Shown piece after piece: positions 13,576 through 35,947 of a stretch of DNA of 64,000 nt. The position numbers and the translations under genes were made by a program. This DNA comes from Acutalibacteraceae bacterium. Lineage in GTDB: Bacteria > Bacillota > Clostridia > Oscillospirales > Acutalibacteraceae. Location: the NCBI GenBank assembly GCA_045595725.1, contig JAZOAY010000007.1:595-64594 (forward strand). Reading direction: 5' to 3'. Below the pieces are notes generated by a model, which saw only the letters and a program-made list of their open reading frames with translations, had not been told where the DNA came from and searched no databases. Positions within the stretch are counted from its first letter, which is position 1, and each line of letters opens with the position of its first letter.

Positions 13576-14301
13576 TTATTTAAGAAGACTTGCTGCTGCT
13601 TTGTCAACGAAGAATGTAACATTTTTGTGGTTCTGAAGAATTGAAGCGGGGCACTGAGGAGTAACTTCACCGTTTACTGCAGCTGCTATTGCCTTTGCTT
13701 TTGCTTCACCTGTTGCGATGAGAACGATTTCTTCTGAACGCATGATGCTGCCGATACCCATTGTCATAGCGTATCTGGGCATTGCCTGTTCGCCGAAATA
13801 TTTCTGGTTGCTGTCAATTGTACTCTGTGTAAGAGTAACCTTGAAAGCTTCGTCTGTGAATTCATCAGCAGGTTCGTTAAAACCAATGTGACCGTTTGTG
13901 CCGATACCGAGAATCTGAACTTTAATTCCGCCGGCTGCTTTGATAGCTTCAGCATATCTTGCGCTTTCTGCATCATAGTCTTCAGCGTTGCCGTCGAGGA
14001 AGTTGATATTTTCTGCCTGAACGTCAATTTTGTCAAAAAGATTTTCGTGCATGAATGTGTGATAACTGTTTTTGTCATCAACAGGAAGATCACAATATTC
14101 ATCAAGGTTAAATGTTTTCATGTTCTTGAAAGAAATGTTGCCTTTGTTGAATTCGTTTACTATGTATTCGTAAGTGGGAACGGGAGATGCGCCTGTTGCA
14201 AATCCGATTGCACATGAAGGCTCGTCAGCCACTCTTTTGATAATAATTCTGCCGACTGCTTCTGCAATCTGTTCTGCTGTTTCGTAAACCTGTACTTTCA
14301 T
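13576..14301 (-). CDS. nagB: glucosamine-6-phosphate deaminase
   Basis: GFATGASP, FNLDEY and GIGTNGHIGFNEP motifs; 241 aa. Confidence 0.92.
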   Translation of the reverse strand: MKVQVYETAEQIAEAVGRIIIKRVADEPSCAIGFATGASPVPTYEYIVNEFNKGNISFKNMKTFNLDEYCDLPVDDKNSYHTFMHENLFDKIDVQAENINFLDGNAEDYDAESARYAEAIKAAGGIKVQILGIGTNGHIGFNEPADEFTDEAFKVTLTQSTIDSNQKYFGEQAMPRYAMTMGIGSIMRSEEIVLIATGEAKAKAIAAAVNGEVTPQCPASILQNHKNVTFFVDKAAASLLK

Positions 14302-14410
14302 TTTTCATTCCTCCGCAATTTTGATGAACAAATTATATCACATTTTAAAATTTTTTTCCATATAATGCAAAAAATTAAGAAAATTTTTTAAAAATTAAGA
14401 AAAAGCCGGG

Positions 14411-14438
14411 AGTTAAGTCCGAATTTTTGGACTTAACT
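14411..14438. promoter_or_regulatory. 28-bp palindrome in the nagB divergent intergenic region (candidate operator)
   Basis: AGTTAAGTCC-GAATTTTT-GGACTTAACT, perfect 10-bp arms. Confidence 0.35.
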
Positions 14439-14449
14439 GAACACAAAAA

Positions 14450-14463
14450 CGAACATTTGTGTT
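14450..14463. promoter_or_regulatory. degenerate LexA-like box overlapping the -35 element
   Basis: CGAACATTTGTGTT. The left half matches the Cheo box CGAAC; the right half is GTGT instead of GTTC. Confidence 0.3.
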
Positions 14464-14489
14464 GACAAATGAAAAATTTGTGTTATAAT
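14462..14489 (+). promoter_or_regulatory. strong sigma-A-type promoter (TTGACA, 16 nt spacer, TGtTATAAT)
   Basis: TTGACA at 14462-14467 and extended -10 TGTTATAAT at 14481-14489. Confidence 0.65.
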
Positions 14490-14499
14490 GGTGACATAA

Positions 14500-14513
14500 A
14501 GAACAAACGTTCA
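14500..14513. promoter_or_regulatory. candidate LexA (Cheo) box GAAC-N4-GTTC
   Basis: AGAACAAACGTTCA lies about 10 nt downstream of the -10 element, upstream of the 82-aa membrane protein gene. Confidence 0.5.
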
Positions 14514-14568
14514 GCATAAATTTACATAAGAGGCTACATAAGACCTCAGATGAAAGGAAGTAATAAAT

Positions 14569-14817
14569 ATGTCACTTAGTTTAACACTTTTAATCGTTTT
14601 CGGAGTAATTTTTGCAGCAGCACTTTTTGCAGGTTTCCTTTATGAGAAAGAGCTCAAAGAGTTTGAAAGAATTCTTGTAAGATATCTGAAACTTAAAGCA
14701 AAGGCACGTAAAGCGGGTGTCAGCGTAGAAGATTACGTAAAAGCAAAGAAAATGCAGAAAGTAACACAGACAAAAAATTATTCAAACGTTGTCAGCTTTG
14801 ACAATTGGGTTGCGTAA
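14569..14817 (+). CDS. small single-pass membrane protein (82 aa)
   Basis: AAAGGAAG RBS. N-terminal TM LTLLIVFGVIFAAALFAGFL followed by a charged helical tail. Confidence 0.6.
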   Translation: MSLSLTLLIVFGVIFAAALFAGFLYEKELKEFERILVRYLKLKAKARKAGVSVEDYVKAKKMQKVTQTKNYSNVVSFDNWVA

Positions 14818-14832
14818 ACGGAGTAATAAAGT

Positions 14833-15198
14833 ATGATAAAGAGGATGCCTACACATTGCGGTGACGATACATGTTCTTCATGTGTTGTGGCGGGGGATTA
14901 CATTTTTCTTGCGCATCATGCAGGGGGACAAGATGTATATGATATTGTCCATCAGACGAGAGCAGTTATTGAAAATATGGCAGAAACGCTGTCAAGTGTA
15001 GGTGCAACACTTGACGATGTGGTACAGGTTAATTATTACATAAAAAATGTTGACGATTTCCGAAAAGGTGCAGATGTTTTCAGAGAGTATTTTAAAAACG
15101 GTGCACCTGCGAGAATGACGGTCGTAACGGAATTTATCAATGATATGTGTCTCTGTCAGATGGACGGAATTGCGTACAAACCGAATAACAGAACGTAA
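14833..15198 (+). CDS. RidA/YjgF-family protein
   Basis: About 120 aa with the typical LDDVVQVNYYIKN...F...ARMTV pattern. Confidence 0.75.
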   Translation: MIKRMPTHCGDDTCSSCVVAGDYIFLAHHAGGQDVYDIVHQTRAVIENMAETLSSVGATLDDVVQVNYYIKNVDDFRKGADVFREYFKNGAPARMTVVTEFINDMCLCQMDGIAYKPNNRT

Positions 15199-15309
15199 AA
15201 AACGGGTAACTTTTGTTGCCTGTTTTTTTATACGCAAATCCGATTGCGATTTTGTCATGCTTGTTTTAAGGCTGATGCTTTGGGTAACAGATGAAATTAA
15301 CAGACCTAA

Positions 15310-35921: not shown

Positions 35922-35933
35922 AAAAAACGTAAA

Positions 35934-35947
35934 CGAACATTTGTTCG
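35934..35947. promoter_or_regulatory. near-consensus Firmicutes LexA (Cheo) box
   Basis: CGAACATTTGTTCG, against the B. subtilis consensus CGAACATATGTTCG. It lies about 12 nt downstream of the candidate -10 element and 31 nt before the TTG start at 35978. Confidence 0.6.

Follow-up and report, generated by a model that had tools for sequence, protein, structure and literature searches.

A small membrane-protein gene behind a predicted LexA-controlled promoter in Acutalibacteraceae is a candidate SOS division inhibitor

Which protein pauses cell division in Clostridia during the SOS response? The well-studied SOS systems each include a division-pausing factor, but homology does not reveal these factors, which are specific to their lineages. 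A lexA mutant of C. difficile is filamentous, and no inhibitor was named for it (PMC4689574); its filaments imply that Clostridia have an SOS-linked division block with an unnamed effector. The question is raised here by a locus in a 64,000-nt stretch of DNA from an Acutalibacteraceae bacterium (the window), where a promoter accompanied by two LexA-type boxes precedes an unannotated open reading frame (ORF) for an 82-amino-acid (aa) protein with one transmembrane (TM) helix. An earlier interpretation made from the letters of this DNA alone (the sequence-only reading) had proposed the protein as a division inhibitor and had stated, consistently with the literature (PMC4689574), that none is well defined in Clostridia. 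Our comparative analysis strongly supports the predicted membership of the 82-aa gene in the core LexA regulon, for which it provides an unusually clean comparative case. Judged from the cis-elements and their conservation, LexA binding and induction by DNA damage are very probable. For the protein itself, the role of SOS division inhibitor is a candidate function to which we assign a probability of about 40%.

The promoter scan of the region returned its top match at 14462-14489, which agrees with the consensus at 12 of 12 positions. The −35 hexamer TTGACA (14462-14467, plus strand), invariant in the genus alignment described below, is separated by a 16-nt spacer from a conserved extended −10 element, TGtTATAAT (14481-14489, plus strand). 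Deduced from the spacing to the −10 element, transcription would start at about 14496. Box 1 (CGAACATTTGTGTT, 14450-14463) overlaps the −35 hexamer, and box 2 (AGAACAAACGTTCA, 14500-14513) would span about +5 to +18. The strong promoter and the two LexA-like elements flanking it had been described in the sequence-only reading, and all of these coordinates proved correct. A ribosome-binding site (RBS; AAAGGAAG, 14553-14560, plus strand), read from the sequence, lies 8 nt before the ATG of the 82-aa ORF (14569-14817, plus strand), which is documented by the ORF listing, 40 close homologues with 63-100% identity, the substitution ratios given below, and the family alignments A3-A5.

The bare core GAAC-N4-GTTC was rejected as evidence of a LexA site, as it occurs at chance frequency: the 2.11-Mb genome (38% GC) holds 26 copies against 25.7 expected, and the window holds 2 against 1.1 expected. 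For this reason, the motif of the organism itself was derived instead. We located lexA, recA, uvrA, and uvrB by NCBIfam models and read their upstream regions, and the reading of lexA and recA was repeated in 30 relatives. In the genus, the lexA operator is [C/T][G/A]AACAAATGTTTG, the recA operator, placed directly after the −10 element, is CGAACATTTGT[A/G]C (in the forms CGAACATTTGTAC or CGAACATTTGTGC), and the uvrB operator is TAAACATTTGTTCG. The invariant heart of these operators is AACAWWTGT, and their outer positions are looser than the textbook core. They agree with the clostridial consensus GAAC-N4-GTT[T/C], which C. difficile LexA binds in vitro (PMC4234289).

With a first matrix built from the lexA, recA, and uvr operators alone, box 1 ranked 12th genome-wide, and two further predicted SOS promoters, those of ruvC and a Y-family polymerase gene, came to light among the other high-scoring intergenic sites. 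The final matrix was trained on the operators of lexA, recA, uvrB, ruvC, and the polymerase gene and on a box at 35.9 kb of the window, with the locus under test excluded. It assigned 15.6 bits to box 1 (training range, 14.7-21.2 bits; rank 8 genome-wide and 7th among intergenic sites) and 12.3 bits to box 2 (rank 30 genome-wide and 11th intergenic), where the genome is a metagenome-assembled genome (89% complete, 178 contigs) and the intergenic calls rest on a crude longest-ORF gene map. Scoring with the organism's own LexA motif, which the sequence-only reading had named as a possible refutation, upheld both boxes and reversed their order. Box 1, labelled degenerate, is the stronger by clade standards because its GTGT right half matches the GTGC/GTAC found at recA. 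Box 2, labelled core-perfect, does contain the GAAC-N4-GTTC core but scores lower.

Two such sites within 80 bp of each other occur at just two loci of the 2.1-Mb genome, the 82-aa gene and the Y-family polymerase gene. The operator positions at the 82-aa gene are such as to occlude RNA polymerase, with box 1 on the −35 element and box 2 just past the predicted start, and recA and the polymerase gene are laid out likewise. Among the top predicted LexA sites, the 82-aa gene is the only one encoding a small membrane protein. The polymerase promoter carries two AGAACAAATGTTCT boxes flanking its −10 element (G000:C136:11677-11712), so that the AGAAC...GTTCT type seen in box 2 occurs twice there; at the predicted SOS promoter of ruvC (G000:C114:4022-4035), CGTACAAATGTGCT lies between the −35 and −10 elements. 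The best-scoring LexA-type site of the genome (21.2 bits) is CGAACATTTGTTCG at 35933-35946, before the regulator gene of a phage-like module. The sequence-only reading had noticed a motif common to this site and the 82-aa gene and had suggested a common regulator; the motif is the LexA box itself, found also at recA, and a LexA-type box is present at both loci. For Acutalibacteraceae, these results supply a workable LexA motif and a first outline of the regulon, comprising lexA together with an M23 peptidase gene, recA, uvrBA, ruvC, the Y-family polymerase, the fibre-and-lysis module at 35.9 kb, and the 82-aa gene.

The counts across relatives given in the following are not phylogenetically independent. 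Within the genus, the gene was found in 13 of the 17 genomes searched, with 14 copies in total, all of which keep box 1 fused to TTGACA, the −10 element, and box 2. In the intergenic alignment A2 (contigs of six close homologues and one genus genome), the block from AAAACGAACATTTGTGTTGACAAAT through TGnTATAAT to AAGAACAAACGTTCAG is invariant, whereas the DNA on both sides is scrambled; the RBS region GAAAGGAnGTAAT is invariant as well. This promoter-operator block is unchanged across species whose synonymous sites are near saturation, and by this comparison it is conserved far beyond neutral expectation. Box 1 is invariant in the genus save for one G-to-A change, which mirrors the variation of the recA operator. 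The spacer of box 2 varies across species (AAAC, AAAT, GAAT) with GAAC and GTTC fixed, a pattern that is the expected signature of a dimer reading GAAC/GTTC half-sites. The coding sequence shows ratios of nonsynonymous to synonymous substitution rates (dN/dS) of 0.08-0.43 in genus comparisons, with dS from 0.3 to above 1, indicating that the ORF is a real protein under purifying selection.

Beyond the genus, a genus-only profile run against 1.84 billion representatives recovered 5 clusters. Weak single-sequence matches in three other genera turned out to be true relatives, with 30-40% identity and a like promoter design. Profile A4, to which remote members were added, found the family in 118 of 401 Acutalibacteraceae genomes (56 of 185 genera). 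The wider profile A5, applied order-wide, matched 12 of 26 Acutalibacteraceae genomes and, in 375 genomes of 29 other families, gave one dubious match interrupted by stop codons. In these searches, the family was found only in Acutalibacteraceae. We then counted LexA-type sites of ≥10 bits within 200 nt before the ORF at 38 loci of other genera, using 354 windows of the same loci as controls. At least one box was present at 36/38 loci and at least two at 20/38, compared with one site in 3/354 and two sites in 0/354 control windows. The second box follows the −10 element at 20 of the 38 loci, and the composite CGAACATTTGTnTTGACA, the form of box 1, is kept exactly in many of them. No conserved neighbour genes between genera were found at 32 loci, which suggests that promoter and ORF travel together as an independent unit. 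Dozens of Acutalibacteraceae genera retain the gene together with its putative SOS switch, and the conservation of box and ORF in relatives, a check proposed by the sequence-only reading, was far stronger than expected.

Two side observations concern this unit. Genome G211 carries two diverged paralogues (L105 and L111), each with an upstream palindrome (described below), box 1 with the −35 element, the −10 element, and box 2, indicating that promoter and ORF were duplicated together. In one other genus (L128 in G372 and L131 in G069), the LexA boxes are lacking, the palindrome is kept close to the −10 element, and the proteins end in AAK or IAK; this lineage may have lost LexA control and a C-terminal tag together.

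The palindrome, AGTTAAGTCC-N8-GGACTTAACT at 14411-14438, has a core of GTCC-N8-GGAC (14417-14432) centred about 72 nt upstream of the predicted start, and its consensus among relatives is GTMC-N8-GKAC. It is found upstream of 14/14 genus copies and 24/38 copies of other genera, beginning 30-34 nt before box 1 (33 nt in 13 of the 14 genus copies), with only 3 further copies in the remaining ~108 kb of the same loci. The motif recurs 26 nt upstream of the recA −35 element in 11/14 genus genomes (source copy, G000:C116:1903-1918) and, in two additional genera (G171, G251), adjacent to other promoters with LexA boxes; the pattern shows no genome-wide enrichment in five genomes. The halves vary (A or C) without compensating changes, which points to a protein site and not a hairpin. 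By its conservation, the palindrome is a third cis-element of the putative SOS promoter, and we hypothesize that it is bound by a second regulator serving some of the SOS promoters.

Several other explanations of the palindrome were set aside. A terminator or hairpin was rejected for this locus, as there is no gene end in the vicinity and changes in one half-site are not compensated in the other; look-alikes on contigs C46 and C72 are true terminators. A role as the operator of nagB was rejected because the palindrome accompanies the small gene in genera without an adjacent nagB, which is found next to it only in the source genus. The resemblance of AAAAACGAACATT to the B. subtilis PurBox was rejected by reasoning, as a correctly spaced partner is lacking and the same 11-mer occurs at recA. 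As a separate observation, a similar element, GTCC-N8-GTAC, lies upstream of a stand-alone HIRAN-domain gene (G000:C42:9405-9804; Pfam E = 7e-6), an accessory gene present in 3/17 genus genomes.

Searches of Pfam, NCBIfam, PHROG, and PADLOC gave no family match for the query or its distant relatives, and matches to PDB sequences were low-complexity noise; on the strength of these searches, the protein is a new family. Its 51 members measure 57-137 aa (median 82). The N-terminal flank is short (median, 3 residues) and lacks Lys and Arg in 48/48 members. It is followed by a single TM helix, the hydrophobic stretch at about residues 3-24 of the query, with a near-invariant Gly near the inner end and, near the outer end, a Glu in most genera and a Gly in the query genus. 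The adjoining membrane-adjacent helix is conserved family-wide, roughly as G-[FL]-x-x-E-x-K-[LVI]-[IA]-x-F-E (GFLYEKELxEFE in the query), and E26 and E33 (query numbering) are invariant throughout the family. The tail (median 58 aa) is unalignable between genera and contains 27% Lys+Arg versus 12% Asp+Glu. By the positive-inside rule, an N-out/C-in topology with a cytoplasmic tail is quite likely. AlphaFold2, run with 15 sequences, predicts helices at residues 3-48 and 53-81 (predicted local distance difference test score, pLDDT, 68).

Two resemblances of the protein were rejected. A ribbon-helix-helix (RHH) reading of residues 33-62 met sub-threshold Pfam NikA-like and FitA-like matches, no strand in the AlphaFold2 model, and absence of the stretch in other genera, and a supposed resemblance to DUF896/YnzC gave no match at E up to 10. 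At the other end of the tail, an Ala closes 43/51 members (VA in 22, AA in 12, CA in 7), and the query ends in ...WVA. A conserved terminal x-Ala on an otherwise drifting tail suggests a C-terminal degradation tag, which we propose tentatively, drawing on C-terminal motifs of ClpXP substrates. Non-polar, −LAA-like C-termini are read by ClpXP and FtsH.

How might such a unit operate? The locus would form one LexA-repressed transcription unit, in which a consensus sigma-A promoter is held off in undamaged cells by two LexA dimers, one on the operator fused to the −35 element and the other acting as a roadblock just past the start, like the recA box. DNA damage would lead to RecA-stimulated self-cleavage of LexA, freeing the promoter and producing a burst of the 82-aa protein. 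On insertion of the protein, its two N-terminal residues would come to lie outside the membrane and its basic tail inside the cell, and its TM helix and acidic membrane-adjacent helix might dock on a SEDS protein, an FtsL/DivIC-type partner, or FtsZ anchors, thereby pausing septation during repair. The polybasic tail could keep the protein attached to the acidic inner leaflet or engage an acidic partner. Finally, the C-terminal Val/Ala/Cys-Ala would be read by a cytoplasmic AAA+ protease of the ClpXP or FtsH type, so that the block is lifted once LexA re-represses the gene. Rapid clearance of this kind, which recovery from a checkpoint requires, has parallels in the removal of SulA by Lon and of SosA by CtpA.

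We favour this checkpoint role for four reasons. Small single-pass proteins in Gram-positive LexA regulons have proved to be division inhibitors; those known are small, lineage-specific, single-pass membrane proteins (PMC6851548). The conserved part of the family, the TM helix and the membrane-adjacent stretch, corresponds to the acting part of the YneA type: in YneA, the TM helix is what acts on FtsW, and a like mode of action is predicted for other inhibitors (PMC13396833). ChiZ shows that an Arg-rich cytoplasmic region beside the TM helix occurs in such a protein. Furthermore, the genome offers three or four SEDS genes as possible targets and, in our search, no small LysM/YneA-like gene, its sole LysM ORF being 528 aa long. 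The terminal Ala of 43/51 members with otherwise unalignable tails, the place of the gene as the sole small-membrane-protein gene among the top predicted LexA sites, and the filaments of the C. difficile lexA mutant also fit this role. The gene is a strong candidate, as far as sequence can tell, for the missing SOS division-halting factor of Acutalibacteraceae.

Several findings weigh against a division inhibitor. The predicted inward tail is opposite to the arrangement in YneA and SosA, for which the extracellular parts are indispensable (PMC6851548, PMC13396833). The 82-aa gene is unlinked to lexA, which lies on contig C153, and the slot that yneA and sosA occupy in other Firmicutes is filled there by a rival candidate. 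This gene, divergent from lexA (G000:C153:6956-7690; L001:2197-2931), encodes an N-terminal TM helix and a Peptidase_M23 domain with intact HxxxD and HxH motifs; it shares the operator region with lexA, and each of the 16 genus genomes with a located lexA has the two genes side by side. The M23 peptidase may itself be an independent, SOS-controlled cell-envelope or cell-wall enzyme. In addition, the family is patchy (118/401 Acutalibacteraceae genomes) and missing from 4/17 genus genomes even where LexA is present, the confidence of the AlphaFold2 model is low (pLDDT 68), and box 2 taken alone has a modest score.

Other explanations depart from the checkpoint role at different points. The most radical holds that the 82-aa gene is not SOS-regulated at all, its boxes being bound by another factor or being mere promoter context for a constitutive small membrane protein. 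The chance frequency of the bare core, the two positions at which box 1 differs from the textbook core, and the palindrome, which points to at least one other factor acting at the locus, would fit this account. It is nevertheless very improbable in view of the like motif at lexA, recA, uvrBA, ruvC, and the Y-family polymerase, which is the canonical SOS set, the scores within the range of canonical SOS operators, the excess of boxes over the control windows (36/38 versus 3/354), and the variable spacer with fixed half-sites, which speaks for a dimer reading GAAC/GTTC. If SOS control is granted, the product might be a membrane-active toxin or holin-like protein whose TM helices oligomerise and depolarise or permeabilise the membrane, causing dormancy, or which assists the SOS-controlled fibre-and-lysis module, 21 kb away, in lysis or release. 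In E. coli, small hydrophobic proteins under LexA control, of the TisB/DinQ kind, are known, and an N-terminal TM helix with a highly charged tail is the general shape of one-TM holins (UviB/BhlA). The Glu conserved inside the TM helix in most genera, the tight double-operator repression of a consensus promoter combined with a possible degradation tag, as befits a toxic product, and the lysis module with its LexA box in the same window point the same way. However, no holin or phage family was matched in Pfam (E up to 10), PHROGs, or PADLOC, the 32 loci revealed no endolysin, bacteriocin, or other conserved neighbour, and 57-137 aa with a long hydrophilic tail is far above the size of type I toxins. 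Alignment A2 contains no conserved sequence outside the promoter block that could encode an antisense or small RNA (sRNA) antitoxin, and the intra-TM Glu is replaced by Gly in the query genus. We consider a toxin or holin unlikely.

The remaining two accounts keep SOS control and assign the protein to another process. An SOS-induced membrane tether could bind DNA, RNA, or an acidic protein through its polybasic tail, anchoring the nucleoid or recruiting a repair or regulatory factor, and any effect on division would then be indirect, through nucleoid occlusion, or absent. Tails of variable length and low complexity with 27% Lys+Arg are typical of non-specific polyanion binding, and, in the query genus, residues 40-58 give weak RHH matches (NikA-like in 9/15 members, best E 4e-4; FitA-like in 7/15), all below the gathering cut-off. 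The RHH-like stretch is not conserved outside the genus, though, the AlphaFold2 model consists of plain helices without a β-strand, and conservation sits in the TM helix and the acidic membrane-adjacent stretch instead of the tail. As ChiZ illustrates, an Arg-rich tail can also do no more than bind acidic lipids (PMC7851954). These points make a tether doubtful. A checkpoint that responds to DNA damage by acting on sporulation or some other developmental process, with the protein as a membrane-bound inhibitor of sporulation entry or progress, would draw on the sporulation genes of the organism, on the position of the gene in the genus a few kb from yabP and yqfD, and on the poor sporulation of the C. 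difficile lexA mutant (PMC4689574). The synteny with yabP and yqfD is limited to the genus, however, with no conserved neighbour in other genera, and no feature of the protein points to a sporulation target; a sporulation checkpoint is a long shot.

Within the division-checkpoint role, a more specific model would combine the features described above. The protein would be a new kind of SOS effector working from the cytoplasmic face, with its TM helix and acidic collar on the divisome, a polybasic tail, and an Ala tag for an AAA+ protease, and the gene would be co-controlled, like recA, by a second damage regulator bound to the palindrome, which precedes the LexA box by three helical turns. Two-input damage circuits have analogues in LexA with DriD in Caulobacter and LexA with PafBC in mycobacteria. 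Taken as a whole, with all of its parts required, this model is speculative and we regard it as rather improbable.

In the region 14000-15300, nagB (Glucosamine_iso) lies on the minus strand with its 5' side ending at 14301, leaving an intergenic gap of 267 nt to the 82-aa ORF. The predicted 5' leader (14496-14600) folds so that the RBS pairs with the coding start (minimum free energy, −16.2 kcal/mol; z = −2.2); neither the length nor the sequence of the leader is conserved among relatives. Sixteen nucleotides downstream of the 82-aa gene, a gene of the RidA/L-PSP family (14833-15198, plus strand; Pfam PF01042, E = 1e-13) with its own RBS is probably cotranscribed in the source genome. It follows the 82-aa gene in L026, L027, and G182 and is absent in L025 and L028-L031, and thus looks like an optional passenger of the putative SOS unit. 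A stem-loop at 15201-15229 (plus strand), with a 9-bp stem (ACGGGTAAC / GTTGCCTGT) including two G-U pairs, a TTTT loop, and a T7 run, is a probable intrinsic terminator of the transcription unit; it was read by eye and is unlisted by the rule-based scan.

The locus offers a concrete candidate for the division-pausing factor of one large family of gut and rumen Clostridia, and its relation to known systems can be set out point by point. Among toxins and holins, TisB and DinQ of E. coli are likewise small hydrophobic membrane proteins under LexA repression with tightly limited expression. These toxins have fewer than 40 aa and sRNA antitoxins, whereas the present family has 57-137 aa, extended hydrophilic tails, and, in alignment A2, no sign of a conserved region for an antisense transcript or sRNA. 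The one-TM holins UviB and BhlA, known from the UV-inducible bacteriocin locus of C. perfringens pIP404, share a clostridial host, damage inducibility (predicted here), a length of about 60-90 aa, an N-terminal TM helix, and a charged helical tail. The 82-aa gene differs in being chromosomal, stand-alone, and vertically conserved, with no Pfam Holin_BhlA match (E up to 10), no PHROG match, and no lysin or bacteriocin neighbour.

Outside the Firmicutes, ChiZ (Rv2719c) of M. tuberculosis belongs to the divisome and is linked to the SOS response; a disordered, Arg-rich stretch on the cytoplasmic side directly adjoins its single TM helix and binds acidic membranes (PMC7851954). ChiZ, at 165 aa, carries its basic stretch at the N-terminus and has an extracellular LysM domain; the two proteins are not homologous. 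SidA and DidA of Caulobacter crescentus are small, damage-induced inner-membrane division inhibitors that work by contacting late divisome proteins within the membrane. A second regulator, independent of LexA, controls DidA (PMC4211646), a situation that the palindrome, as a putative extra operator at the 82-aa gene, parallels. SidA and DidA belong to another phylum, show no homology, and lack a polybasic tail.

The closest comparison is with the Firmicute inhibitors. The sequence-only reading had likened the protein to YneA and SosA; the likeness holds for size and the single N-terminal TM helix and fails for the tail, which is predicted to be cytoplasmic, for the LysM domain, and for the position beside lexA. 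YneA of B. subtilis and Listeria is also a small single-pass protein with an N-terminal TM helix under LexA-type control, and both proteins are expected to be cleared by proteolysis. The TM helix of YneA targets the divisome by binding TM7 of FtsW (PMC13396833), and YneA and SosA both act via an extracellular C-terminus (PMC6851548, PMC13396833). In contrast to YneA, the 82-aa protein has no sequence similarity to it, a tail predicted to be cytoplasmic, a gene that is not divergent from lexA, and no LysM domain, none being detected in it or 15 relatives at E up to 10. SosA of S. aureus comes closer in build, with 77 versus 82 aa, one N-terminal TM helix, no LysM domain, a conserved membrane-adjacent segment, and a variable remainder. 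Both are lineage-restricted orphans whose extreme C-terminus is tied to turnover, by prediction here and by published work for SosA (PMC6851548). The C-terminus of SosA is extracellular by experiment and is cleaved by the extracellular protease CtpA, and its gene adjoins lexA, whereas the 82-aa gene is unlinked and its product carries a polybasic tail predicted to point inward. By its predicted architecture, the design of the family differs from the known Firmicute inhibitors, and if the inward polybasic tail and the Ala tag are functional, this would be a design unlike YneA and SosA in which action and removal both take place inside the cell.

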